Position numbers and translations under genes: made by a program. A stretch of 32,000 nucleotides of DNA, from the NCBI RefSeq assembly GCF_001457815.1, contig NZ_LN898221.1, forward strand, positions 115,519 through 147,518. Direction: 5' to 3'. The DNA comes from Vitreoscilla massiliensis. Lineage in GTDB: Bacteria; Pseudomonadota; Gammaproteobacteria; Burkholderiales; Neisseriaceae. Position 1 is the stretch's first letter; every line of letters starts with the position of its first letter. Below, piece by piece: positions 11,283 to 32,000 of the stretch. The notes beneath the pieces were generated by a model, which saw only the letters and a program-made list of their open reading frames with translations, had not been told where the DNA came from and ran no database searches.

Positions 11283-12239
11283 TCACGATTGTTGGTTTAG
11301 GATGGTTTTTGGGTCAAACTGATTACCTGTTTTCAGAACGGTGAAGCAGTAAACCAAGAGCTTGCGCATCATTGCACAAATAATCTGCTTGTTGGTCTTT
11401 CCCTTGTCTTTTAGACGTCTGATGAATGGCTGATATACCGCCATTCTGAACGCTACAACGGCTGGCATGTACAGTGCTGACCTGATGTACTTGTCGCCCA
11501 TCTTTGAGATTGCTAAATGCCTTGTGGACTTGTTGCCTGACTGCTTGATGATGGGATTAAGACCAACGTACTTTGTGGCTTGTTTGGCGGTTTTGAATTG
11601 CTTATCTGCAAACAAAGTGAGGATGTGCGGTATGGTGCCATCGCTGATTGCTGTGATTGATTTTAGAAGCTTTGCCTGTTTATCCAAATCATCATCGGAT
11701 TTGATGCGCGACTGGATAACTTTCTCAATGACTTTGATTTCTGCTTTTGTGTTTTTAATACTGGTCTCTATATAAGGTTTTACAGAATGATGTGCGACCA
11801 GGAAACGATTGTTGTGTGATGTGAGCAAGTCTTTCAAACCGTCTAAATATCGTGTGAGGGCTTTTAATTCTCTTTCAGATGGTGAAGCAGGTTTATACAA
11901 CTCTGGTTGATTTCGTTGGCAGTAGATCGCAATGCTTTTTGCGTCTTGTTTGTCTGTTTTGACATTTTGTAATTCACTGGTAACGAATGCTTTAATGCGT
12001 AATGGATTGACTACTGAAATCTTGTGGCCTGTATCGTGTAGATAGTCGGCTATGGCTTCACTGTATGACCCAGTAGCTTCACAACAGGCGTAAACCTTGT
12101 TTGCGGTGTGTTTTTCTAACCAGTTTGTCAGCTTGATGAAACCCTCTTGATTGTTTTCGAATGTACGGTGCAGGTATTTTGTATCGTGCATTAAACAACA
12201 ATCAATCTTTGCCTTGGCAATGTCTAAACCTAAATACAT
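11283..12239 (-). CDS. IS110-family (DEDD, Piv/MooV-like) transposase
   Basis: 318 aa. The N-terminal RuvC-like region has MYLGLDIAKAK, CCEATGSY and KTDKQDA. The C-terminal Tnp domain has GLNPIIKQSGNKS...ISKMGDKYIRSALYM. GGGGAG lies upstream of the ATG. Confidence 0.9.
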   Translation of the reverse strand: MYLGLDIAKAKIDCCLMHDTKYLHRTFENNQEGFIKLTNWLEKHTANKVYACCEATGSYSEAIADYLHDTGHKISVVNPLRIKAFVTSELQNVKTDKQDAKSIAIYCQRNQPELYKPASPSERELKALTRYLDGLKDLLTSHNNRFLVAHHSVKPYIETSIKNTKAEIKVIEKVIQSRIKSDDDLDKQAKLLKSITAISDGTIPHILTLFADKQFKTAKQATKYVGLNPIIKQSGNKSTRHLAISKMGDKYIRSALYMPAVVAFRMAVYQPFIRRLKDKGKTNKQIICAMMRKLLVYCFTVLKTGNQFDPKTILNQQS

Positions 12240-12387
12240 GCAACTCCCCTTATATGCAAGCTGGCTTATTCCCTTTGCCGCTTTTGATACTGTTCAGATT
12301 TTTAGACAATAGAAAGCCCCAGTTACCAATCTTGTTTCCAAGCTCGAGGCTTAGCGGCTAGTGCGGTATATCTGGGGCTGGTACAAC

Positions 12388-12543
12388 TTAATTTTTCTTT
12401 TGGCCAAATAGCATCCAACCAAAAAAAACAGATGTATAAAAAACAAGTTCTTCAATTGTGAATGTTAGCTCACCAACACGAAAAACATTAATAACTTTAA
12501 GAATGACTATTACAACAAATAAAATTACTAAAAAACGTTTCAT
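12388..12543 (-). CDS. 51-aa hydrophobic protein translationally coupled to zot
   Basis: Below the ORF-track cutoff. Its ATG overlaps the zot TGA as ATGA at 12541-12545. The product MKRFLVILFVVIVILKVINVF...FYTSVFFGWMLF has two hydrophobic segments. Confidence 0.35.
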   Translation of the reverse strand: MKRFLVILFVVIVILKVINVFRVGELTFTIEELVFYTSVFFGWMLFGQKKN

Positions 12544-13784
12544 CACTGAGCATCAAGTTTTACAGATGGCCTCATTGTGTCTTTTGTAGTGCTATCAGTC
12601 AATGACAGTACATTGGCATTGTTTTGTTGCTGGGCTTGTTGCTGGCCTTGCTGTACTGGCGGTATTGGGTCACGGTACGGGTCAAACGGTAAACCTTCCT
12701 TTGCCCACTTTTTACAGAACACATCGGAGACATTAACGACCGTGCCTTGTTGGCTGTAAGCAGTGCATTTGCCTTTGCTAATCATCACCCCTTTAACCTG
12801 TTCAAATGTCTTGGGCTGGCGTATACCGTCGTAGAGTGGTTTTGATTCAGGTTTCTCAGGAATCGTGGGTACAAAGTCGGTAGGCTTTAAAGACTGTCCA
12901 GCTTGCGGAGTATCGTTATTTGATACTGCTCGATTATCCTGGACACCTTGTTTAGTAGCATTTGGTAATACGTCGCTTGCCATTTGCGCATCTAACTCTG
13001 TTTTTGGGCTTGTATCAATGCCACCAATATCTTGTTTGGCTCGATTACTTAAATGATAGAAACTGTATGCAATAAATAAAATGCCTACCATAAGAACGTA
13101 AATAACTGGGCTTACACGTCTTTTATGTTTAATGTGTATTGAGCTGGATTTGTAATATTTGAATGCGTTTTTAGGGGGCTTATAAAGCCTCTGTGTGGCA
13201 TCAGCAAGCGATTGCTTGCTGAGGTTGACCATGCATTCATTCCATTCATACAGCCGCGTTGTGGCTTGTTTACGGGCAACATGGATGTGTCTTGAGACGA
13301 GATTGCGAACATAGATGTCTATGTTCGCCGGGTGTTGCGTCATGATAATGAGTGTGTGGCCTTGATGGCGTAATTCTGTCAGTTTTGATACGTACTCTGG
13401 AACAGCTCTGGCACTGGAACGAACGGGGTAAACATAGTGACATTCATCAACGACTATCAAAGAACCATCGGGAAACAATTCAGCCAGTGGTGCAGATGAC
13501 ATGGTTTCATGGGAGACACGGGATGCGCCAAGCTTTGTAACTTTCAGACCGTCGATGTGTGAGATGTAATAAGGGCGTTTTATCCACTCGTAATCGGATG
13601 CTTTAGCTGCGGTTTCATCATCTTCATCGGATTCATTTTCATAATTGTAGTCAGGGTATTTCCACTCTTCTTTGCCATCAATTCGGGCAGGCATCTGGCC
13701 CAATTTGTCTTTGTTGTTGGCAATGGCATCGATGACGTAAGAAGTCTTGCCTGTACCCATATTACCTGTAATCAGGATAATCAT
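12543..13784 (-). CDS. zot: Zot-family assembly ATPase (pI-like)
   Basis: 413 aa. It has Walker A GNMGTGKT and Walker B LIVVDECH, one mid-protein TM helix (VIYVLMVGILFIAYSF), and a Q-rich C-terminal periplasmic domain. Confidence 0.9.
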   Translation of the reverse strand: MIILITGNMGTGKTSYVIDAIANNKDKLGQMPARIDGKEEWKYPDYNYENESDEDDETAAKASDYEWIKRPYYISHIDGLKVTKLGASRVSHETMSSAPLAELFPDGSLIVVDECHYVYPVRSSARAVPEYVSKLTELRHQGHTLIIMTQHPANIDIYVRNLVSRHIHVARKQATTRLYEWNECMVNLSKQSLADATQRLYKPPKNAFKYYKSSSIHIKHKRRVSPVIYVLMVGILFIAYSFYHLSNRAKQDIGGIDTSPKTELDAQMASDVLPNATKQGVQDNRAVSNNDTPQAGQSLKPTDFVPTIPEKPESKPLYDGIRQPKTFEQVKGVMISKGKCTAYSQQGTVVNVSDVFCKKWAKEGLPFDPYRDPIPPVQQGQQQAQQQNNANVLSLTDSTTKDTMRPSVKLDAQ

Positions 13785-14074
13785 ATACCGACACCTGTCA
13801 CACCCATCATGATGCGTTTGCCGACGTTTAGGGCGATTTTAAAGGCAATGGCACCGAAGATAATCGACAAGGCATAACCTAAACCTGCAATCATCATAAT
13901 GTTATAAGCCTCGGGCTGTGTTCTACTGAACTGAGTCAATATGATGTCTTTAAACTGCGTAAGAAGGTATGCAGAAACACCGCCAGTAACGAACGCTATA
14001 CCAAAGGCAGCAATCAGCTTAATGACTAAATAACGTGCAATATACGCAAGAACAGCTGCTAAAACGGCTGGCAT
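13781..14074 (-). CDS. DUF2523-like small membrane protein (pVI-position minor coat candidate)
   Basis: 97 aa with three hydrophobic helices. It lies immediately upstream of zot with an ATGA overlap, the usual inovirus arrangement. Confidence 0.55.
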   Translation of the reverse strand: MPAVLAAVLAYIARYLVIKLIAAFGIAFVTGGVSAYLLTQFKDIILTQFSRTQPEAYNIMMIAGLGYALSIIFGAIAFKIALNVGKRIMMGVTGVGI

Positions 14075-15633
14075 CAGTCTTTACTCCTTATGATGAGATA
14101 CAAACCTACGAGTGATGAAATAATGATGATGAATGGGCGCAACATTTCAGCCGCTTCACAGTGTTTTTCATAACTTTGAACGATGGTTCCCATGCTAAGC
14201 GTGATGGTTTTAGGAGCAGGGCAAGTACCTGTCGATGGTAAAAAGCTATCTAATTTAAATTCTGCAGGATTGGCAATTTCAGGGATTTTGATTTTGTCAA
14301 AGATTGATTCGGCTTCCTCACCTGTTCCAGATTGCAAACATGCACCCGCAGTGGGATTTTGTTGACAGAACTCGGCAATATCAGTGAACTCAGGAAATTC
14401 GATGTTGATGTCAGGTACGGATGGATTAACAACCTGTGGTTTTGTGCCAGTTTGCTCGTTTGGCTTAGCCACTGGAGCAGTATCTGTGTTGGTTAAGTCA
14501 GGACGAGCAACTGGAGTCACTTGCGTGGGATTTAATGTGCCACTTTGACCGAGAGACGGATTGTATGTCCAAGCGTCATTTGTGCCTGAATTCACGCCTA
14601 TGCCTGAGCTACCACCACCAATAATGACCTGGTCTTGTTGAGCGGTTCCTGTGATTGGATTCGTGTAAGGAGGGCCGATAACGCTAACTGGAGAGCCAAC
14701 AACGCCCCCAGTAAGCTGAACGTCTTTGATATTTTTGCCTTGAGTGGGTTCGTTAACGCACTCGCTTGGAAATTTTGCACACACTTCATCGAAATACTTT
14801 AATAAATCACGGTCTTGCATCAATCTTTCTTCAGTGAGAGTTGGTGATAAAGTAGACCACGAAAAAGAATAACCATCATAACCTGTCTGCGGAGCCGGTC
14901 TTTTGTAATAACAATTGACATGAACATTGACATTGCAATATTCAAGCGTTGAGCCATTAGGATTAACAGGCTTTAATTTTGACTGAACAACGGCAATAAG
15001 CTTGTCATGACTGACATATTCATCACGTGTTGCATAAATCGTATTTGTAGTCACAACTTGTTGCGTAGCAGGATTGACAACTTTTGAGACGTACATGTAT
15101 TCGACTTTTTGTTTGCAATCCACTTCATCACAATTAATACCATCTGTTCTAGCAGCCTCCAAAAAATACGCTAAAGCACCACCCATAACAGCATTTTTAG
15201 CAGCATTTTTAAGAGCGAAGTTTTTAAAAGTATTCCAAGCCACAGTTCGCCCAATAAAGCCACCCACACTTGGTGCCAAACGAGCCAACCAAAACCATGT
15301 GTGTTGGTATTGACCTTTGTTTTGGTAATTGAATGGTTGCTTGATGTAATTCGCGTACATGATGCCATCAGATTTTTTGTTTGCTACAACTTGCTCTAAC
15401 CAATCATCAGATGTGTACTTGGTTTTCAAATCCATGTTGACTTTGATTTCTGCGCTGAATCCTGTGGTTTTGTCATACGTCCAAGCCCTATTATCAAAAA
15501 CGTAAGGGTCAAGATTGAAGTACAAATTACCCTGTTCAGCATAGACATAGTTGCCGCCACCAAAGCCAAGGTAATTGATTGCGTGTGAGAATGTCGGAAG
15601 CATCAAAATGATGGCAATGAGGATACGGTACAT
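14074..15633 (-). CDS. pIII-like adsorption/minor coat protein
   Basis: 519 aa. It has a signal peptide, Gly/Ser/Thr/Pro-rich linkers (GGGSSGIGVNSGT, PVAKPNEQTGTKPQVVNPSVP) and a C-terminal membrane anchor FIIIISSLVGLYLII. It sits between the coat genes and zot. It is about 85-90% identical over long stretches to the partial ORF at 30961 onward. Confidence 0.65.
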   Translation of the reverse strand: MYRILIAIILMLPTFSHAINYLGFGGGNYVYAEQGNLYFNLDPYVFDNRAWTYDKTTGFSAEIKVNMDLKTKYTSDDWLEQVVANKKSDGIMYANYIKQPFNYQNKGQYQHTWFWLARLAPSVGGFIGRTVAWNTFKNFALKNAAKNAVMGGALAYFLEAARTDGINCDEVDCKQKVEYMYVSKVVNPATQQVVTTNTIYATRDEYVSHDKLIAVVQSKLKPVNPNGSTLEYCNVNVHVNCYYKRPAPQTGYDGYSFSWSTLSPTLTEERLMQDRDLLKYFDEVCAKFPSECVNEPTQGKNIKDVQLTGGVVGSPVSVIGPPYTNPITGTAQQDQVIIGGGSSGIGVNSGTNDAWTYNPSLGQSGTLNPTQVTPVARPDLTNTDTAPVAKPNEQTGTKPQVVNPSVPDINIEFPEFTDIAEFCQQNPTAGACLQSGTGEEAESIFDKIKIPEIANPAEFKLDSFLPSTGTCPAPKTITLSMGTIVQSYEKHCEAAEMLRPFIIIISSLVGLYLIIRSKD

Positions 15634-15634
15634 A

Positions 15635-15709
15635 TCAACGCCCCATCGTCAGTATGCCCATCGCAACGATGACGCAAGCAGCTAATCCGAGAAGTGTGTA
15701 GATAGACAT
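15635..15709 (-). CDS. 24-aa hydrophobic peptide (pVII/pIX-like candidate)
   Basis: MSIYTLLGLAACVIVAMGILTMGR. Its stop lies directly next to the pIII-like ATG. A positional counterpart of 26 aa exists in prophage 2 at 30881..30961. Confidence 0.3.
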   Translation of the reverse strand: MSIYTLLGLAACVIVAMGILTMGR

Positions 15710-15717
15710 AACGAACC

Positions 15718-15993
15718 TCACAAACCACGTCTAAGAATGGCAACACCAACCATTGATACTGCTACTACAATCAAAGCCCAACCCATTTCGATACCGTCTA
15801 GAACCTGCTGTAATGGGCTGCATTGGGGGAATGAATCAACGATTTGTATGCCGTTTAATTGCCATTGTTGGCCAACTTGCTCGGGCTGAACCAGTTGGCC
15901 GTTTTGATTGATAACAGGGGCAACAGAGCTGTATTTATAGTTCTGCGCTTCTTGAAGCGTTTCAAAGCACTGGAAACCTACTTGATAACCCAT
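15718..15993 (-). CDS. conserved inovirus protein with C-terminal TM anchor (minor coat candidate)
   Basis: 91 aa. AGGGGG lies upstream of the start. It is homologous to 30609..30881: MGYQVGFQCFETLQEAQNYKYSSVAPVI versus MGYFVDGVCVSTKEQAEAMLYSKVAPVI. Confidence 0.5.
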   Translation of the reverse strand: MGYQVGFQCFETLQEAQNYKYSSVAPVINQNGQLVQPEQVGQQWQLNGIQIVDSFPQCSPLQQVLDGIEMGWALIVVAVSMVGVAILRRGL

Positions 15994-16008
15994 GTTGCCC
16001 CCTGTTAA

Positions 16009-16209
16009 TTACAATGCGCGACGCAAGTATTTAACAACCATGATGGCAACCAATCCTGCAAAGATTGCCCATGCTACCAAGGCACCATCGGTACCAATAT
16101 TGGTAATCACATTGGTTACGTCCGCTGGAACCTCAGCGTGTGCTGCTACTGCCAATGCTGCCAATGATGCGCCAGCGCCATACTTCACTACCTGGTTAAT
16201 GCGTTTCAT
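16009..16209 (-). CDS. major coat protein (pVIII-like)
   Basis: 66 aa. The signal peptide ends AHA-E. The mature peptide of about 41 aa has an acidic N-terminus, a hydrophobic core and a basic C-terminus, KYLRRAL. AAGGAG lies upstream. Confidence 0.8.
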   Translation of the reverse strand: MKRINQVVKYGAGASLAALAVAAHAEVPADVTNVITNIGTDGALVAWAIFAGLVAIMVVKYLRRAL

Positions 16210-16224
16210 AATGAAACTCCTTGA

Positions 16225-16443
16225 TTAAATGTGTGGCCATGAAAGCGTGACCCCTTCGCTTAAAAACTCTTCAAAATCATCTAAATTCAGACTGAACTCT
16301 TCTTGCGGCTCTAATTCCCAACCATCGTCGCCAAGGTGTTCGATGTCGCCATCGGGATTCATGCGGTAATCTGAATTTCGGTACTCGTTGCCTTCATCGT
16401 CGATTTCACCGCTCATATCGTCGATGTCCCAATAGCCTGTCAT
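16225..16443 (-). CDS. extremely acidic small phage protein (YWDIDD motif)
   Basis: 72 aa, roughly one third Asp/Glu. It has an ATGA overlap with the upstream gene. It is homologous to 30015..30317 in prophage 2. Confidence 0.6.
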   Translation of the reverse strand: MTGYWDIDDMSGEIDDEGNEYRNSDYRMNPDGDIEHLGDDGWELEPQEEFSLNLDDFEEFLSEGVTLSWPHI

Positions 16444-16787
16444 TTGTTAGGCTTCATCGGCTGAGCGATGGATTTCATATGGGTTAAGCTGACTTGTGCG
16501 TTACCTGATTTGTCGATGTAGGCTGATACAAAGATGGGTAAGCGCAACAAGTCACCTGATTGGAAGTTTTCATCTACAAACTGACAGGTTTCTGCACTGA
16601 CACGGATGGATGTGCGACCGTCATTGTTGCGGGGTAAACCTGAACACTCTTCCAAATCCATGAAGTACATGGATTCTTTCTTTTCACCGTATTCATGACG
16701 GCGAAAGCCTGCGAATACACCAGTGGCCACCAACGGATGGCCGCCAGTACCTGCTGATTTTTGTTTGGGTTCATAAACTTGGCTCAT
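16440..16787 (-). CDS. ssDNA-binding protein candidate (gV position)
   Basis: 115 aa starting from the ATG at 16787 (MSQVYEPK), preceded by GAGAGG. It lies directly after Rep. The call is by position only. Confidence 0.4.
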   Translation of the reverse strand: MSQVYEPKQKSAGTGGHPLVATGVFAGFRRHEYGEKKESMYFMDLEECSGLPRNNDGRTSIRVSAETCQFVDENFQSGDLLRLPIFVSAYIDKSGNAQVSLTHMKSIAQPMKPNK

Positions 16788-16798
16788 TTCGATACCTC

Positions 16799-17806
16799 TC
16801 ATATTTCTTGTGATAAAACGATGTCGCGGCACTTGTAACCCCAAGAGCTGCCGACCATGAAACACATCATTTCGCTGTAATTGTCAGCGTTTAATGTGAT
16901 TGTGTTGACCATGCCAAATGCTTGTTGCACGCGGTTCCATTGGTCTTGGTTCGTTTCGATGTAAGCTTGGAGCTTCTTGCGCCACAGTGTTGAGCCGTAG
17001 CTGAAGAAGGAGAAATTGCTGTTAGCCACTTTCCAGCTATGGCCTGAATCTTGGGAGCATTGGACGAGGCGAACGCCTTTGTCTTTTGCTATGCGTGATT
17101 GAACGTGTTTGCTGATGTATTTGCCGACGTACTTGGCAAGACGTGCAGAGCAGGTGCGAATCGGCAGTAATTCGTGACGGCCAAAGCCATATTTTTCCAT
17201 CGAATCACGGAGCAATTTCCAAATCGCTTTTAAAGCCTTGTTTGCTGACTTGTAACGGCCGTAACGTGGCAATTTTTTGTTGTAAAACTGTTTGAAATCA
17301 AAGCCTGTCAGGATGTCTACTTTGCAATCTAAAATCAGGTGGTAATGAATACGGCCATTTTCTTGGCGTTCGTAACAGCGGATGTAATCACCGAAATATT
17401 TGTGTAAGCAGTATTTGTAGAATGATTTGAAGCGTTTTTGGGCTTCTTTTGGGCATTGGATGTCATCGGCAAAAGTCAGGGTCAGGAAGCCAATGTTATT
17501 AATCGGGTAATAATTGCAAAACGCTTCTACATTCATCTCAAGTGCTGCGGTGGATTTCTTGCCTTGAGAGGACAATTCAAACTTCTCAGATTCAACAATT
17601 GCACCTTCGGCGCAGTTGTTACTATTTTGACAAGGAACGTCCAAAACCTTGCGGTTTTGAACGTCTCCAGCAGCAGAATTGCGTGAATTTTGAACGCATG
17701 CAGAACACAAAGCACCTTCGGTCAACATGAATTTGAACGTGAAAACGCCACAGCCTTTGCACTGATGCTGTAACTTGAGCGGAACACCATGCATGAACTT
17801 AGCCAT
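16799..17806 (-). CDS. rolling-circle replication initiator, HUH endonuclease type, with N-terminal CxxC...CxxC zinc-ribbon-like segment
   Basis: 335 aa starting from the ATG at 17806 (MAKFMHG), preceded by GAGGT. Motif 1 is GFLTLTF, the HUH motif is HYHLIL, and the Tyr motif is AKYVGKYISK. The N-terminus has CKGCG-x16-CSAC. Confidence 0.72.
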   Translation of the reverse strand: MAKFMHGVPLKLQHQCKGCGVFTFKFMLTEGALCSACVQNSRNSAAGDVQNRKVLDVPCQNSNNCAEGAIVESEKFELSSQGKKSTAALEMNVEAFCNYYPINNIGFLTLTFADDIQCPKEAQKRFKSFYKYCLHKYFGDYIRCYERQENGRIHYHLILDCKVDILTGFDFKQFYNKKLPRYGRYKSANKALKAIWKLLRDSMEKYGFGRHELLPIRTCSARLAKYVGKYISKHVQSRIAKDKGVRLVQCSQDSGHSWKVANSNFSFFSYGSTLWRKKLQAYIETNQDQWNRVQQAFGMVNTITLNADNYSEMMCFMVGSSWGYKCRDIVLSQEI

Positions 17807-18104
17807 GATGTACCTCACTGGATGCAGAAGCAGGGGCGGACTCGTCAGCTCGTCCATCCCCTTGCTTCTGTTCTGTTTTGTTTGATTGTTTTATGCGGCG
17901 TTTACGCTTTGGACGTGAATCAAAATCAATAAGAAATTTTGAGATTAGGAGGAACAAATAGCAGGCAAGCATGAGCATAACGCCCAAACTTAGACCCTCA
18001 GTAACACCTTTAACATAAGCAGAACTTACATCAGGGGATGCATTGGCAATAATTTCTTGGCAAAGTTGTAAAACTTCAGGCTGTGCAGTGATATTGGAAT
18101 TCAT
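17799..18104 (-). CDS. single-pass membrane protein with basic C-terminal tail
   Basis: 101 aa starting from the ATG at 18104, which makes an ATGA overlap with the upstream ORF. The TM helix is LSLGVMLMLACYLFLLI, followed by RPKRKRRIKQ. Confidence 0.4.
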   Translation of the reverse strand: MNSNITAQPEVLQLCQEIIANASPDVSSAYVKGVTEGLSLGVMLMLACYLFLLISKFLIDFDSRPKRKRRIKQSNKTEQKQGDGRADESAPASASSEVHHG

Positions 18105-18298
18105 ACCGCACTCCCCACACGAATCAGGGGCAAATTGTTCCAATGAGCAAAGAGGATGCAGCGGAATAGGAAATTGTATTGACGAACTGGGGAGCGTTTA
18201 CCACCATCGACAAGCGTCACAATGTATTTGCGGCTTGGAGTACGTGAAACCTCAAAATATGCGGTTTCAATATCAAACTCTGGTAATGGTCTTTGCAT
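18101..18298 (-). CDS. conserved small inovirus protein (first gene of the operon)
   Basis: 65 aa starting from the ATG at 18298 (MQRPLPEF). The N-terminal ~45 aa are homologous to 27694..27885 (MHKPLPAHDKHTAYIEIS...). Confidence 0.5.
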   Translation of the reverse strand: MQRPLPEFDIETAYFEVSRTPSRKYIVTLVDGGKRSPVRQYNFLFRCILFAHWNNLPLIRVGSAV

Positions 18299-18432
18299 GT
18301 AAAACGCCCCTATGAATGAAATCACAGGGGCGTTTTCGCTTATGGATGCAGGTTTTTTAGCAAAATTTCAGCTAACACCTAAGATACTGTTCAAACTAAT
18401 GATTTTGTCATGCCCGAGTGATGGGCAAAATA

Positions 18433-18475
18433 TAAGCGGCCTGTAAACCGATTATATGGGTTTACAGGCCGCTTA
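18433..18475. terminator. inverted DUS-like pair terminator downstream of nhaC
   Basis: TAAGCGGCCTGTAAACC-gattatatg-GGTTTACAGGCCGCTTA forms a 17-bp stem. Confidence 0.7.
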
Positions 18476-28070: not shown

Positions 28071-28183
28071 TTCGTTACACAGTTTATTGCTTCTTGTGGT
28101 GGGTAAATTTTATAGCCTGTGTTTTCAATAGCATCTTCACTTTTGTAACAGATAAATTTACAAAAAATGAGGTGAAATTATGA
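28067..28183 (+). CDS. 38-aa hydrophobic peptide
   Basis: MIRYTVYCFLWWVNFIACVFNSIFTFVTDKFTKNEVKL. It has ATGA overlaps with both neighbours and is bracketed by a 21-bp direct repeat. Confidence 0.3.
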   Translation: MIRYTVYCFLWWVNFIACVFNSIFTFVTDKFTKNEVKL

Positions 28184-29655
28184 TTCTTTCTCCAAAACAG
28201 CTTTACATGCTTGACCCCAAAGCACGCAAATCTAAACCACTAAATACAGACAAAAAAGCCCCTGTGCTGGAGTTCGTCGACCCATTAAACCAATCGGATA
28301 AATTTGCCGCGTTCGGCGGTATAGGTCGCGCAAGCGACCAGAGCGCCGTCGCTGCGGGCGATAGCCCCCCGTTATGTAACACGGGGGGAACATCAGAAGC
28401 TGTTTTTTATGCCATTGGTTTGCAAAACCACGGCGAAAAACAAAAGCAAAAACTCTTTAAACGCGGCTTGGATGGCATCGCCTTTATAGACACCCTCACC
28501 TTTACCCTGTCTGAGGACGTTTTTATCCCCGATACCGAAATGCCCGAACCCGAAGTGATTGCCAACAACATCAGCGCATTTTTATACAGCATCTTCGGTT
28601 TCGGTTTGGTCGCCAAGTGCAACGGCTTGCACGGCTATCAAATCAGTTTCTTGATGGGTCAAGCCAACGCCGAATATGGCCGTGCCGCCTTTTGGGGCAA
28701 CAAAAACACGGTTTACATCAACCTTACTGGCTTGGGGCTAACAATGGCTGCAGATGGTTGGGAAGAACGCCTGTATGATTTTTTTCAGACCCATGCCCCT
28801 GAAGCCAAGATTACCCGCATTGACCTGTCTCACGACTTCTTAAATGGTGAGTACAGCATCGACCAGTGTTTTCAAGACTGGAAAGACGGCAAATTCAAAA
28901 ACATTAAATCAGCCCGAAACCCAGTGGCCGAACAGTTCGGCACCGATTGGCTTAACGACACCAAAACAGGTCGCACCCTGTACATCGGTTCTGCGAAGTC
29001 CGACAAGCGTTTGATGGCATACGAAAAAGGCAAACAACTCGGCGACCCCAATAGCCCTTGGGTACGTCTTGAACTGCGCATGCGCAACCACAAGCTCACC
29101 TTACCGCATGAAATGCTTATAAACCCTAGCCCGTTCTTTGTCGGTGCTTACGATGCCATAAACGACATTTTCAGCAATTACAACTTGAAAACCGACAAAC
29201 CAGCGGTCAAGCAAAAAAAAAAGGATTTGGGCATTTTGCATGTAACCAAGTACGCCAAGATGCAAGTTTCCCCTGCTCTGAAGCTGCTTACTGAAGAACT
29301 CGGACTGACCAAAGAACAAGCCTTTGACAGCCTGTTCAATGATAAATGCAAGATGCCCAAACGCTTGCTTAAAGATGGTTTAACAGACAGCACTGAAATG
29401 ACGTATTTCCATGAATTTGGCCGTTTACCGCAGTCGATTGAGGACATGACCCGAATTTACAAAATTGATTTAGTACGCAGCAACGACAAACCGTATTGGA
29501 TGACAGACGAAGAATACCAACGCTTACACCCTGAAAACATACTGACCGTACAAGACACACACGACACTTACTTTGACTTTACAAAACCACTTTCTAATCC
29601 GATTGGAGCTAAAAATGTTAATTCTGCAATGCACTTTACTCAACATCATCGATAA
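28180..29655 (+). CDS. replication initiation protein, Rep_trans (RstA/pT181 RepC-like) family
   Basis: 491 aa. It contains the motifs AFIDTLTFTL, ITRIDLSHDF, LYIGSAKSDKRLMAYEKG and WVRLELRMRN, which I recall as typical of phage Rep_trans initiators. GAGGTG lies upstream. Confidence 0.75.
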   Translation: MILSPKQLYMLDPKARKSKPLNTDKKAPVLEFVDPLNQSDKFAAFGGIGRASDQSAVAAGDSPPLCNTGGTSEAVFYAIGLQNHGEKQKQKLFKRGLDGIAFIDTLTFTLSEDVFIPDTEMPEPEVIANNISAFLYSIFGFGLVAKCNGLHGYQISFLMGQANAEYGRAAFWGNKNTVYINLTGLGLTMAADGWEERLYDFFQTHAPEAKITRIDLSHDFLNGEYSIDQCFQDWKDGKFKNIKSARNPVAEQFGTDWLNDTKTGRTLYIGSAKSDKRLMAYEKGKQLGDPNSPWVRLELRMRNHKLTLPHEMLINPSPFFVGAYDAINDIFSNYNLKTDKPAVKQKKKDLGILHVTKYAKMQVSPALKLLTEELGLTKEQAFDSLFNDKCKMPKRLLKDGLTDSTEMTYFHEFGRLPQSIEDMTRIYKIDLVRSNDKPYWMTDEEYQRLHPENILTVQDTHDTYFDFTKPLSNPIGAKNVNSAMHFTQHHR

Positions 29656-29905
29656 ACCTGAAACCGTCAACCGTCAAACAGGCGAAGTCATTCCAGCTAA
29701 AAAAGTGTTACAGGTTCAAGACCAAACACGCCAAAAAGACGGCCAAATCAAGTTCATGCAACACGATTTGTCGTTCACAGGCAATGCCGACATTTTTAAG
29801 GGCTTGGTAGGCAAAGAAGTTCATATCAATGTTTCTGCATACTCAAAAGACCAGTTTAACGTTGGTTACACCATGCTAGGTCTACACGGTAAACAAACAG
29901 ATTAA
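29615..29905 (+). CDS. ssDNA-binding protein candidate (gV position)
   Basis: 96 aa starting from the ATG at 29615, preceded by GGAG. It overlaps the Rep 3' end by 41 nt. The call rests on position and size only. Confidence 0.4.
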   Translation: MLILQCTLLNIIDKPETVNRQTGEVIPAKKVLQVQDQTRQKDGQIKFMQHDLSFTGNADIFKGLVGKEVHINVSAYSKDQFNVGYTMLGLHGKQTD

Positions 29906-30014
29906 GCCATTTGGGGGCGTGGCTTTGGCACTTTCGCAGCCCCCACAAACCAAGCTTTAAAACTTGGGGCGGTTTTAAACCTTGCCGAATCTGCCCCAAG
30001 TATTGAGGTTTGCT

Positions 30015-30317
30015 ATGTCAGATTATTGGGATATTGATGATTCAACAGGTGAAATTGACATTGATGGCAATGTTTATCGCAATGAATCGTTCAGAGAAAC
30101 ACAAGACGGTGAAATTGAAGAGTTAACAGACAAAGGCTGGGAATACTCAGCCATGAATGACTTTGCTCTTGAATTTGAACATGATGAGGATGGAAATATT
30201 GTGGGTTCTCATCAGGTTGATGCTGATGGTAATGAGCTTGAAAGCTTTGATTTGAATTTTGGTGATGAAGAAAGTTTTGATTTGGATTTTGGTGATGAAG
30301 GGGATTTGAATTGGTAG
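30015..30317 (+). CDS. extremely acidic small phage protein (YWDIDD motif) with internal tandem repeat
   Basis: 100 aa starting from the ATG at 30015, preceded by TGAGGT. It is homologous to 16225..16443. The C-terminus carries the duplicated ESFDL(N/D)FGDE. Confidence 0.6.
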   Translation: MSDYWDIDDSTGEIDIDGNVYRNESFRETQDGEIEELTDKGWEYSAMNDFALEFEHDEDGNIVGSHQVDADGNELESFDLNFGDEESFDLDFGDEGDLNW

Positions 30318-30369
30318 TTTTACGGGAAGCAAACACCCTATTTTGTTTGCAAATTTTGGAGAACGTCTT

Positions 30370-30600
30370 ATGAAAAACGTAACTAAAAAAGCTGGCATCT
30401 CAACTGCCGTTGCAACTGCTTTGACTGTTTCTGCGCCTGCTGCTATGGCTGCTGATGCTTTTACTTTGGATACCACTGCTGTTGTAGCCGCTGCTGCTGT
30501 TATTTTGGGTGCTGTTGGTGTGATTGGTTCTGCTTTTATGATGATTCCTGCAGCTATCAAAGGCTGGGGTGTTGTTAAAGCAATCATCTTCCGCAGTTAA
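30370..30600 (+). CDS. major coat protein (pVIII-like)
   Basis: 76 aa starting from the ATG at 30370, preceded by GGAGA. The signal peptide ends AMA-AD. The mature peptide has an acidic N-terminus, a hydrophobic core and a basic C-terminus (KGWGVVKAIIFRS). Confidence 0.8.
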   Translation: MKNVTKKAGISTAVATALTVSAPAAMAADAFTLDTTAVVAAAAVILGAVGVIGSAFMMIPAAIKGWGVVKAIIFRS

Positions 30601-30608
30601 GGTGTGAT

Positions 30609-30881
30609 ATGGGCTACTTTGTTGATGGTGTGTGTGTATCTACCAAGGAGCAGGCAGAAGCCATGCTGTATAGCAAGGTAGCCCCTGTAATCACAGAAAA
30701 CGGCGTTAAGCAGTTGGACTATATAAACGGGCAGTATGTTTTTGAAAGCCAAGTCTTAACGTCTGTTTTTCCTGAATGTTCACAGGCTGCAAACTTCATA
30801 CAAGGTGCACAATTCGGCCTGTATATCGGTTTGTTCTTTGCAGCAGCTTACGGTTTTATTGCAATGAAAAGGGCCATGTGA
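30609..30881 (+). CDS. conserved inovirus protein with C-terminal TM anchor (homolog of 15718..15993)
   Basis: 90 aa, homologous at the N-terminus and in overall architecture to the prophage 1 protein. Confidence 0.5.
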   Translation: MGYFVDGVCVSTKEQAEAMLYSKVAPVITENGVKQLDYINGQYVFESQVLTSVFPECSQAANFIQGAQFGLYIGLFFAAAYGFIAMKRAM

Positions 30882-30961
30882 TGACTTTCCAAGACCCTTA
30901 TTTCCTAGCTGGTTTTATATCTGTCCTTGGCTTCGCTTGGATATTTTTCTCAAGGCTCTGA
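30881..30961 (+). CDS. 26-aa hydrophobic peptide (pVII/pIX-like candidate)
   Basis: MTFQDPYFLAGFISVLGFAWIFFSRL. It has 1-nt TGATG-type overlaps with both neighbours. It occupies the same position as 15635..15709 in prophage 1. Confidence 0.35.
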   Translation: MTFQDPYFLAGFISVLGFAWIFFSRL

Positions 30962-32000
30962 TGATGAAATATTTGATAAGCATTCTTCTACTGTTTATTT
31001 CTTTTCAAGCAAATGCTGTCAATTACCTCGGCTTTGGCGGCGGCAATTATGTGTATGCTGAACAAGGTAATCTGTATTTCAACATTGACGAGTATGCATT
31101 TGATAACAGGGCTTGGACATATGATGGTCAAAAGTTCACAAGTCAAATTAGTATCAAAATGGATTTAAAAACAAAGTACACGTCAGATTGGTATGAACAA
31201 GTATTAGTAAACAAAAAATCAGATGGTTTTATGTATGCAAATTATATTAAGCATCCATTTCATTATCAAAATCGTGGTGACTATCAAAAAGTTTTTTGGC
31301 AAAGATATGCGGCTGCGGCAGTTGGTGGGCAAATCGTAAGAACTGCATCATTTGGAGCTTTTAAAGGATTTATAAAAAATAACTTTCCAAAATTTGCTGC
31401 TACTGTAATCGGTAGTTATTTTATTTCTCTTGGAGTTGCTGATAGTGTTAATTGTGAATCAGGTGATTGTAAGCAAACAGTTGAATATATGTATGTTTCA
31501 AAAGTAGTCAATCCCTCAACACAGCAAGTAGTGACAACTAATACGATTTACGCCACTCGTGATGAATATGTCAGTCACGAAAAACTCATTGCTGTTGTTC
31601 AGTCTAAATTAAAACCTGTTAACTCTAATGGTTCAACGCTTGAATATTGTAATGTTAATGTCAATGTGAATTGTTATTACAAACGTCCTTCACCTCAGAC
31701 CGGCTATGACGGTTATGCGTTTTCATGGTCTACTTTACCTTCAAAATTAACTGAAGAAAGACTGGTTCAAGATAGGGACTTGCTTAAATACTTTGATGAA
31801 GTCTGTGCAAAATTTCCAAGCGAATGCATTAACGAACCTAGTGATGGTAAAAAAATTAACGATGTTCAATTGACTGCAGGCAGTATTAGCGGTGGGGTTA
31901 GTGTTACCGGTCCACCTTACACAAATCCTATAACTGGTAAAGCAGAGCAAGATCAAGTGGTTATAGGTGGCACAAATTCTGGTATTGGTGTGCCATCTTC
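30961..32000 (+). CDS. pIII-like adsorption/minor coat protein, 3'-truncated by the window end
   Basis: This frame is open from the ATG at 30961 to the window end, so it is not in the ORF track. The product MMKYLISILLLFISFQANAVNYLGFGGGNYVYAEQGNLYFN... parallels 14074..15633. Confidence 0.7.
   Translation, partial: MMKYLISILLLFISFQANAVNYLGFGGGNYVYAEQGNLYFNIDEYAFDNRAWTYDGQKFTSQISIKMDLKTKYTSDWYEQVLVNKKSDGFMYANYIKHPFHYQNRGDYQKVFWQRYAAAAVGGQIVRTASFGAFKGFIKNNFPKFAATVIGSYFISLGVADSVNCESGDCKQTVEYMYVSKVVNPSTQQVVTTNTIYATRDEYVSHEKLIAVVQSKLKPVNSNGSTLEYCNVNVNVNCYYKRPSPQTGYDGYAFSWSTLPSKLTEERLVQDRDLLKYFDEVCAKFPSECINEPSDGKKINDVQLTAGSISGGVSVTGPPYTNPITGKAEQDQVVIGGTNSGIGVPS

Follow-up and report, generated by a model that had tools for sequence, protein, structure and literature searches.

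How a filamentous phage selects the place in a host chromosome where it settles is the question raised by a 32,000-nt stretch of Vitreoscilla massiliensis DNA (hereafter the window; all positions are window coordinates). It contains, on the minus strand, a filamentous prophage whose last gene encodes an IS110-family recombinase. For phages of the Nf/MDA type, integration by their own transposase has been proposed since 2005 from genome comparison (PMC7058167), and the literature that we searched offers no explanation of their site choice. We consider it probable from the sequences that the phage in the window integrates by RNA-guided recombination, using a bridge system of the IS110 group that is stretched around the phage genome. 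The insertion boundaries, the homology of the recombinase to IS621, a covarying RNA structure, guides that are complementary to the flanks and covary with them, and the attachment site (attP) in circular relatives can all be read from the sequences. Related loci and contigs are denoted by L and a number.

The boundaries were called by comparing the window with an empty site in a metagenomic contig of a relative (L001), whose flanks are about 88-91% identical. In L001, the SRPBCC gene and the nhaC-like gene are adjacent and only 71 nt apart, and therefore the whole block including the transposase is a single insertion. The prophage comprises 7,374 bp, with its ends at 11061/11063 and 18434/18436. 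An original prediction, made before this analysis, had placed it at 11283-18336; the block is real, but the true element is larger and extends from 11061 to 18436. On the minus strand, the left junction reads ...GGTTTACAGGCCG-CT-TATATTTTGCCC..., with the core at 18436-18435, and the right junction reads ...TCAATACAGTAT-CT-TGTTTATAC..., with the core at 11062-11061, the CT dinucleotide being common to both. The features at the junctions are as follows.

18435..18436, minus strand: CT core of the left junction (attL), identical to the CT at attR; the circular relative L187 reads left donor (LD)-CT-right donor (RD) over its junction
11061..11062, minus strand: CT core of the right junction (attR)
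11050..11060, minus strand: right target (RT), TGTTTATACAC, host DNA, of which the first 5 nt pair with the right target guide (RTG)
18437..18475, minus strand: host inverted pair of DNA uptake sequences (DUS), the terminator hairpin of the nhaC-like gene at 18492-19889

The left target (LT) is the DUS arm at 18437-18450, reading ...CGGTTTACAGGCCG on the minus strand, and constitutes the outer arm of the inverted pair. The hairpin formed by the DUS pair is unbroken in the empty site L001, and in the window the T-rich left end of the phage stands in for the T-tail of the host terminator. The GC content is 0.40-0.46 within the prophage versus 0.48-0.54 in the flanks. The canonical Neisseria DUS has no copy in the whole window, and a host DUS-like 12-mer, AAGCGGCCTGTA, has 22 copies in the window but none from 10175 to 18430, where about 6.6-8.6 would be expected (P of zero about 1e-3 to 2e-4). 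Both the higher AT content and the lack of DUS in the block had been noted before, and both observations hold. The 22 copies of the host repeat, AAGCGGCCTGTA(A), are spread over about 19 kb of non-phage sequence and stand mostly as inverted pairs after genes, for example at 8330/8346, 9441/9458, 10141/10159, 18435/18462 and 21437/21453. To our knowledge, this repeat is not among the eight DUS dialects described for Neisseriaceae.

Two other types of integration site were considered. The window contains no tRNA gene, which rules out integration at a tRNA site, and no dRS3 repeat (ATTCCC-N8-GGGAAT) is present at the prophage junctions, which consist of the DUS pair and a T-rich tail. A 10-bp repeat, AAGATACTGT, found at 11061-11070 and 18381-18390, was evaluated as the att core, with the next 50 nt as host DNA. 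This reading was rejected because the 50 nt beyond the repeat are kept among phages of different hosts and because a circular relative showed the true junction.

From its sequence and position, we infer that the 133-nt segment directly upstream of the recombinase gene is a bridge RNA of the IS621 type, with the following predicted parts.

12247..12379, minus strand: putative bridge RNA gene, 133 nt, upstream of the recombinase gene, delimited by a covariance model
12315-12379, minus strand: target-binding loop, with the loop of the left target guide (LTG) at 12353-12364, an inner hairpin at 12340-12352, and the RTG plus AU handshake at 12328-12339
12247-12298, minus strand: donor-binding loop, with the left donor guide (LDG) at 12284-12295, a hairpin at 12258-12283, and the right donor guide (RDG) at 12249-12257

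The target loop has outer stems around an internal loop, with a hairpin between the two strands of the latter; the donor loop is built alike, its end lying at the ribosome-binding site. The covariance model was built from the window phage and one 96%-identical relative only, with a structure drawn by hand, and it yielded one full-length match directly upstream of the transposase in 26/26 phage loci, with E values from 1e-44 to 2e-3 and transposase identities down to about 33%. A MAFFT alignment placed the outer stem of the RNA region out of register, and the alignment produced by the covariance model was used instead. In this alignment of 26 loci, which is fitted to the structure of the model, 96.1% of the cells pair and compensatory changes are found in 25 of the 26 pairs; none of 500 shuffles equalled this pairing, and slid controls paired at 30-50%. 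Searching Rfam at gathering thresholds returned nothing, and under permissive settings only a chance-level match to COG3943 appeared at 12485-12595 (E 0.96); Rfam gave no family for a bridge RNA. An RNA of the IS1111 style downstream of the transposase (11063-11282) was also considered and rejected, because the covarying RNA lies upstream. Integration through a PivNM-like transposase, which the original prediction mentioned as proposed for the Neisseria Nf/MDA phages, fits insofar as the phage carries its own recombinase, but the bridge RNA that would account for integration had gone unnoticed.

The guides of this putative RNA can be compared directly with the integration sites. The 3' strand of the target loop, AAACA-AG-AU, is complementary to the RT (TGTTT), to the CT of the core and to AT, the two final donor bases, and the 5' strand ends in GCCGCT, identical to the end of the DUS plus the core. 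The donor loop holds ACAGUAUC, corresponding to the left donor, and AUAUAAG, complementary to CT-TATAT. Both the LDG (ACAGTATC) and the RDG (AUAUAAG) match the phage ends, and the same LD-CT-RD arrangement is found in L187 and in the GenBank genome OR148969.1. Next to the RTG stands AU, which pairs with AT at donor positions 6-7. IS621 likewise has A and U directly behind its RTG; there they serve as the handshake guide, pairing with donor positions 6-7 once strands have been exchanged (PMC11208158). The RTG is a perfect match to the 5 nt after the core in 18/23 loci, versus 3.9 expected (0/20,000 permutations), and in 11/13 versus 1.3 expected among the loci whose flank or guide is not TTTTT. 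Perfectly matched flanks include TGTTT, TTTGT, GAAAT, TCTTT, TTCTC, TTCCC, CGTCA and TCGGA. Three copies of the phage with about 90-97% identity (window, L184 and L191) have different guides, each of which fits its own flank:

Window copy: guide AAACAAG, flank (core + RT) CTTGTTT
L184 copy: guide AAAAAAG, flank (core + RT) CTTTTTT
L191 copy, in the same genome as the window: guide TTAACAAG, flank (core + RT) CTTGTTAA

On the other side of the core, all ten resolved left junctions, including that of L191, adjoin an inverted DUS pair at its outer arm. Seven DUS variants occur at these junctions (...CAGGCCGCT, CAGGTAGCCT, CAGGCAGCCT, CAGGCAGCT, CAGGCTGCT, CAGATAGCCT and CAGACGGCCT), and the LTG holds variant-specific bases (GCCGCT, AGGTAGC, GCAGC(T), GCTGCT, TAGCCT, ACGGCC). 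LTG and junction DUS arm share 5-7 nt in nine loci, and their longest common stretches (LCS) sum to 55 versus 35.9 (0/20,000 permutations). For phages of the Neisseria type, left junctions were not found from the RDG sequences, and only that of L028 was resolved, via its DUS. The IMG/VR contig L087, an Nf-like prophage, has a Neisseria context with nine DUS and two dRS3; the complement of its RTG, CT-CGTCAT, matches the right flank CT-CGTCATTTCC, which lies in dRS3-rich sequence. This locus hints that the site choice of the classical Nf phages follows the same RNA rule.

Some right flanks deserve mention in their own right. L017 and L019, which have an identical transposase, share 11 nt (TTTTGTGTGCC) past the core before their right flanks diverge; the shared segment may reflect similar target sites or an assembly effect. 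In L185 (ENA ERZ15184733), a phage with the guide of the window (TGTTT) sits at CT-TTTGTTTGG, which fits the guide imperfectly or with a slip; at 1688-1700, the empty site L001 reads CT-TTTGTTTC, the same sequence type as the right junction of L185. Natural insertion seems to tolerate a mismatch or a 2-nt offset in the right target.

Until 2024, recombinases of the Piv/IS110 group were viewed as finding their sites by protein-DNA contacts alone, and on such an account the similarities among the ends would be subterminal repeats or binding sites. The motif ACAGTATC is present as DNA at three places in the element: one copy belongs to the right end, one stands about 45 nt in from the left end, and the third is in the 150-nt gap on the upstream side of the transposase, where the reverse complement of the right junction is also found. 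The three copies could equally be protein-binding repeats. Nevertheless, we regard recognition by protein contacts alone as very unlikely, since compensatory changes in 25/26 helix pairs point to selection on an RNA fold and the guide varies together with host flanks, which are not phage DNA. In addition, the recombinase is a close full-length homologue of IS621 and ISCro4, whose dependence on RNA has structural proof.

The recombinase that would act with the bridge RNA matches IS621 (8WT6, E 6e-52) and ISCro4 (9T56, about E 1e-52) over its full length, and residues D6, E54, D96, D99 and S234 are invariant among 19 homologues. Its closest homologues are 51-61% identical and reside on contigs of 5-8 kb, and every homologue that was fetched forms the end of the same phage gene order, following Zot and a small open reading frame (ORF). 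The same layout was found in L017-19 and L188, whose hosts have Eikenella-type DUS, in L020/21 from Paralysiella testudinis, and in L022-24, L186, L187 and L189. It is kept down to 33% transposase identity, and at least 80 IMG/VR contigs carry such elements; the earlier view that they are poorly described outside Neisseria thus gives way to the finding that they are common in public data. Of two contigs with a 96%-identical transposase, L184 also contains Zot and L185 is too short to show the neighbouring genes. In the circular metagenomic contig L187 (30-nt terminal overlap), the transposase lies within the circle, and the sequence between transposase and Rep reads ...GATAACAGTAT-CT-TATATTTTGCCCC..., precisely the donor junction that the prophage ends predict. 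Likewise, OR148969.1, a circular inovirus genome from saliva, has the same layout with the transposase within the circle. The exact 318-aa transposase sequence is absent from the gene-call index, in which neighbouring phage proteins of the same genome are present; the gene may be marked differently in the deposited annotation, or be given another start codon there. The transposase paralogue in L191 was called at 315 aa.

These observations bear on the possibility, stated with the original prediction as one that would undo it, that the transposase and its upstream region are an independent IS110 insertion sequence (IS) beside an unrelated filamentous prophage, which would then integrate by other means. 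Soil and water metagenomes indeed contain stand-alone compact IS relatives, whose transposases are 38-43% identical and which have the same upstream RNA and a right end of about 16 nt. Moreover, the phage modules are mosaic: Zot is nearest to Neisseria-type phages, and Rep and transposase are nearest to the Eikenella and Paralysiella group. However, no left end of an IS (CT plus the RD sequence) is present beside the RNA, and the sole CTTATAT lies 6,045 nt upstream, at the far end of the phage. The guides fit the junctions of the whole 7.4-kb element. No transposase copy without phage genes was seen in the exact look-up, in the 96%-identical contigs or in the second genomic copy. Among GTDB representative genomes, a scan for the transposase gave distant matches only, the best being 37% identical in Pseudoalteromonas, without an obvious phage layout. 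With the conserved layout, the circular relatives and the lack of a phage-less copy, the independent IS is rejected as a most improbable explanation, and the recombinase is best regarded as part of the phage.

The ends of the element contain further non-coding features.

18429..18434, minus strand: phage left end, TATATT, comprising the RD and the -10 hexamer of the predicted junction promoter
18411..18430, minus strand: 5' stem-loop GCCC-N7-GGGC, kept at the left end of relatives and matching the stem-loop after the left end in compact IS relatives
18339..18392, minus strand: second donor-loop-like module (DBL'), consisting of GAACAGTATCTT, a stem and GCATCCATAAG, with weak covariance-model matches at the same place in L020, L024 and L187
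18301..18336, minus strand: terminator-like hairpin and T-run just before the first phage ORF, with compensatory changes in eight loci
11063..11282, minus strand: right-end non-coding region with a hairpin at 11237-11276
11156-11174, minus strand: conserved element GCGGCGTCGCAAGTGAGAC, a candidate origin or packaging signal
11078-11083, minus strand: -35 hexamer TTGACT
11063-11075, minus strand: left donor ...ACAGTAT

When the ends are joined, they read TTGACT-17-TATATT over the junction. The equivalent in L187, TTGACC-17-TATATT, is the only promoter-like site in the gap between transposase and Rep, and the junction of OR148969.1 reads TTGACA-16-TATATA. Integration splits the -35 and -10 hexamers apart, and a promoter scan of the integrated element returned fewer sites than chance. 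Stem-loop, DBL', terminator-like hairpin and first ORF follow the -10 hexamer in this order, an arrangement that is kept in eight loci. In the subgroup of the window, DBL' covers the full CT core, and the RDG proximal to the transposase fits the RD better than that of DBL'. The element GCGGCGTCGCAAGTGAGAC is strongly conserved, flanked by GC-rich hairpins and also present in L187, L188, L189 and L071; a looser motif of the GGCGAACG type occurs downstream of the transposase in L022/L186 and, in the Neisseria-type relatives L025 and L026, upstream of the bridge RNA.

Taken together, RNA-guided integration could proceed as follows. The circular replicative form would bear the donor site ...ACAGTAT-CT-TATATT..., with a predicted attP of ...TCAATACAGTAT-CT-TATATTTTGCCC... 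and a restored attB of ...ACAGGCCG-CT-TGTTTATAC... The recombinase (11283-12239) would bind the bridge RNA from directly upstream (12247-12379), whose donor loop would pair with both halves of the donor site and whose target loop would pair with the end of the inverted DUS pair (GCCG-CT) and with 5 nt past the CT core (TGTTT). After strand exchange, the AU handshake would pair with the donor bases AT. Recombination at CT would set the phage between the terminator stem and its T-tail without target duplication, and circularisation would rebuild a sigma-70 promoter, TTGACT-17-TATATT, over the junction, reading into the co-directional phage genes. That the RNA is produced, that it guides recombination and that the copy in the window is active is what we infer, the guidance because of homology and covariation.

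Several points weigh against this interpretation. The pairing between LTG and target is short (5-7 nt), the target is one C longer than the guide in L017, L188, L020 and L065, the guide of L028 ends in CA and not in CT, and mismatches occur at several natural sites (L185, L026, L071). In the subgroup of the window, only the C of the core is covered by the LDG near the transposase, and an extra donor-like module, DBL', exists at the left end. The pairing counts are inflated by an alignment that was fitted to the structure of the model. The scan of the integrated element gave no convincing promoter before the bridge RNA, which lies 6 kb from the junction promoter, and its transcription is assumed. 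Finally, no circular form of the window phage itself was seen; circles were seen for the relatives L187 and OR148969.1.

The last point, together with the absence of the exact transposase protein from the gene-call index though its neighbours are present, and with the split promoter in the integrated state, would suit a fixed, immobile remnant, in which the architecture is real but the copy neither excises nor makes virions. We consider this unlikely, although less so than the alternatives discussed above. All ORFs of the prophage are open and of usual lengths, and a second copy of the phage with 90-97% nucleotide identity and the same layout occupies another site in the same genome (L191, CP091511.1 229896-250954; phage at about 9434-16880 of the locus), where it has a different guide and a replaced N-terminus of TspB. 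Phages with 96%-identical transposases are present at two further metagenome sites. The second copy, the two metagenome sites and the open ORFs argue for recent mobility of the phage. In L191, the TspB protein has 474 versus 519 aa and positions of about 2970-4309 of the window element are unaligned; an extra AT-rich stretch of about 130 nt follows the transposase stop codon.

The gene content of the prophage was determined from ORFs by Pfam and PHROGs profile searches. Twelve ORFs, all on the minus strand, form a compact co-directional genome within the range of 5-15 kb, and six small ORFs have no Pfam match.

18101..18298, minus strand: small ORF, about 65 aa from its ATG, no Pfam match; its homologue in the second prophage of the window is 43% identical
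17799..18143, minus strand: small ORF, about 100 aa, without a family match; the second genomic copy has a 97-aa gene in the corresponding place
16799..17857, minus strand: Rep, rolling-circle replication initiator (REP_ORF2-G2P, 3.6e-12)
16440..16787, minus strand: 115-aa ORF at the position of the ssDNA-binding protein, a function suggested by position only; 115 aa also called in L191
16225..16443, minus strand: 72-aa acidic ORF, with a homologue at 54% identity in the second prophage
16009..16209, minus strand: major coat protein, 66 aa (Phage_Coat_B PF05356, 2e-13)
15718..15993, minus strand: 91-aa candidate minor virion or membrane protein (phrog_12382), kept across relatives
14074..15633, minus strand: pIII-like adsorption protein, 519 aa (Neisseria_TspB C-terminus, 1.5e-10)
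13781..14074, minus strand: DUF2523 protein, pVI-like (1.5e-13)
12543..13784, minus strand: Zot / pI-type assembly ATPase (PF05707, 1.6e-27; phrog_197, 1.4e-58)
12388..12546, minus strand: 52-aa hydrophobic ORF, with a small ORF at the same position in relatives
11283..12239, minus strand: IS110-family DEDD / serine bridge recombinase (DEDD_Tnp_IS110 PF01548, 1.2e-27; Transposase_20 PF02371, 4e-17)

Zot/pI ATPase, Coat_B coat protein, rolling-circle Rep and the compact co-directional genome are features of the Inoviridae type, and a large TspB-type ORF followed by DUF2523, Zot and, in last position, an IS110-family transposase is the layout of Nf/MDA-like phages. The original prediction had read twelve co-directional genes in inovirus order, with a DEDD/IS110 transposase as the last one, and the profile searches recovered Rep, Coat_B, TspB-like protein, DUF2523 and Zot as well as both transposase domains. 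Our results support a complete-looking inovirus of the Nf/MDA type with an IS110-family recombinase of its own. A nucleotide search with the element against 50,697 phage records gave no match.

The plus strand of the window contains a second, different filamentous prophage, which extends from 27200 to 32000 and past the window end. It encodes a Rep of the Rep_trans type (28180-29655), homologues of three small ORFs of the first prophage and a TspB-like protein (30961-31956) that is 69.5% identical to that of the first prophage; a 116-aa gene on the opposite strand (27221-27571) may encode a repressor. From about 26640 onwards, the sequence is AT-rich and without DUS, and no DUS/CT/TATAT junction was found at the left end of this prophage.

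For the site choice of Nf/MDA phages, the locus and its relatives offer a testable answer in the form of an IS621-type bridge RNA. What is new here is the integration mechanism deduced at the level of sequence, with DUS terminators and not dRS3 as predicted targets, which is computationally well supported; the inovirus layout of the Nf type and the IS110 bridge recombinases were already known. In this phage, bridge recombination would naturally mobilise an entire self-replicating virus of 7 kb, and near-identical phages supply natural reprogramming events. Lysogeny of the phage is tied to DUS, which are markers of transformation specificity in Neisseriaceae. Host range and integration sites could perhaps be predicted from the guide sequence. 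In addition, the loci provide a set of diverse natural pairs of recombinase and RNA with known targets. With somewhat less confidence than for RNA guidance itself, we lean towards viewing this lineage of Neisseriaceae inoviruses as, in effect, a giant IS110 element. Its left guide would be tuned to the DUS variant of the host and its right guide rewritten site by site, so that thousands of DUS-pair terminators would be programmable safe landing sites, and circularisation would switch on the phage operon. DBL' may split or regulate guide function, and the same logic would explain the choice of dRS3 by Nf/MDA phages.

Nf1-Nf4 and MDA phi have the same order of replication genes, coat, TspB, DUF2523, Zot and, last, an IS110-family transposase (Kawai 2005; Bille 2005; PMC7058167). 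Like the window phage, they measure about 7-8 kb, live in a Neisseriaceae host and integrate around a CT motif in a repeat that abounds in the host. In gene order the window phage is Nf/MDA-like, but close kinship with Nf1-4, a Neisseria host and dRS3 are all lacking: the window phage targets the edge of an inverted DUS pair in Vitreoscilla, whereas Nf/MDA phages target dRS3. Compared with the Neisseria-context relative L087, its proteins are only 28-40% identical and its transposase 33%, and its Rep has no match in Neisseria-context loci. In a search of openly accessible literature, no paper was found to connect Nf phages, dRS3 or phage integration directed by DUS with bridge or seek RNAs.

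With IS621 and the IS110 group (PMC11208160, PMC11208158), the element shares a homologous recombinase, an upstream RNA with target and donor loops, and a CT core. The left guide is identical to the top strand and the right guide is complementary to it, a 2-nt AU handshake addresses donor positions 6-7, a promoter is rebuilt at the circle junction, and the targets are repeats or terminator-like hairpins. In contrast to the approximately 1.3 kb of IS621-type elements, the window element measures 7.4 kb, with a whole inovirus genome between the left terminus and the RNA. Its 7,374 bp, phage genes included, exceed the about 1.2-1.6 kb of a compact element that holds RNA and recombinase only. Its right end comprises 220 nt versus about 16 nt in compact IS, an extra donor-like module stands at its left end, and the junction promoter faces the phage operon, whereas it faces the RNA directly in IS621-type systems. 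Cargo-bearing IS110 elements (bioRxiv 10.64898/2026.08.14.744561) likewise move several kb of cargo as a unit, with boundaries deduced from guide matches. That study stresses resistance and plasmid-derived cargo, and its main text contains no mention of Inovirus, Zot or Neisseria. Judged from its genes, the cargo of the window element is a phage that replicates itself and forms virions, and the arrangement is an old trait that the lineage has conserved.

The closest annotated phage records are Inovirus D_HF6_34 and related inoviruses from saliva (OR148969.1 and others), with a 41% identical Zot. OR148969.1 is a 7.5-kb circle with the transposase after Zot, a bridge RNA match (E 5.6e-5) and the TTGACA-16-TATATA junction, but its transposase is only 33% identical and it has no DBL' at the left end. 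It also has another type of Rep: both OR148969.1 and the second prophage of the window encode a 'replication initiation factor' of the Rep_trans type, whereas the Rep of the window phage is REP_ORF2-G2P. CTX phi and other inoviruses that use XerCD and dif are filamentous phages too; they encode Zot and become lysogenic through site-specific recombination. CTX phi lacks a recombinase of its own, depending on the host XerCD at dif. The window phage, unlike CTX phi, brings its own recombinase and, as predicted here, its own guide, and would have many possible sites at its disposal.

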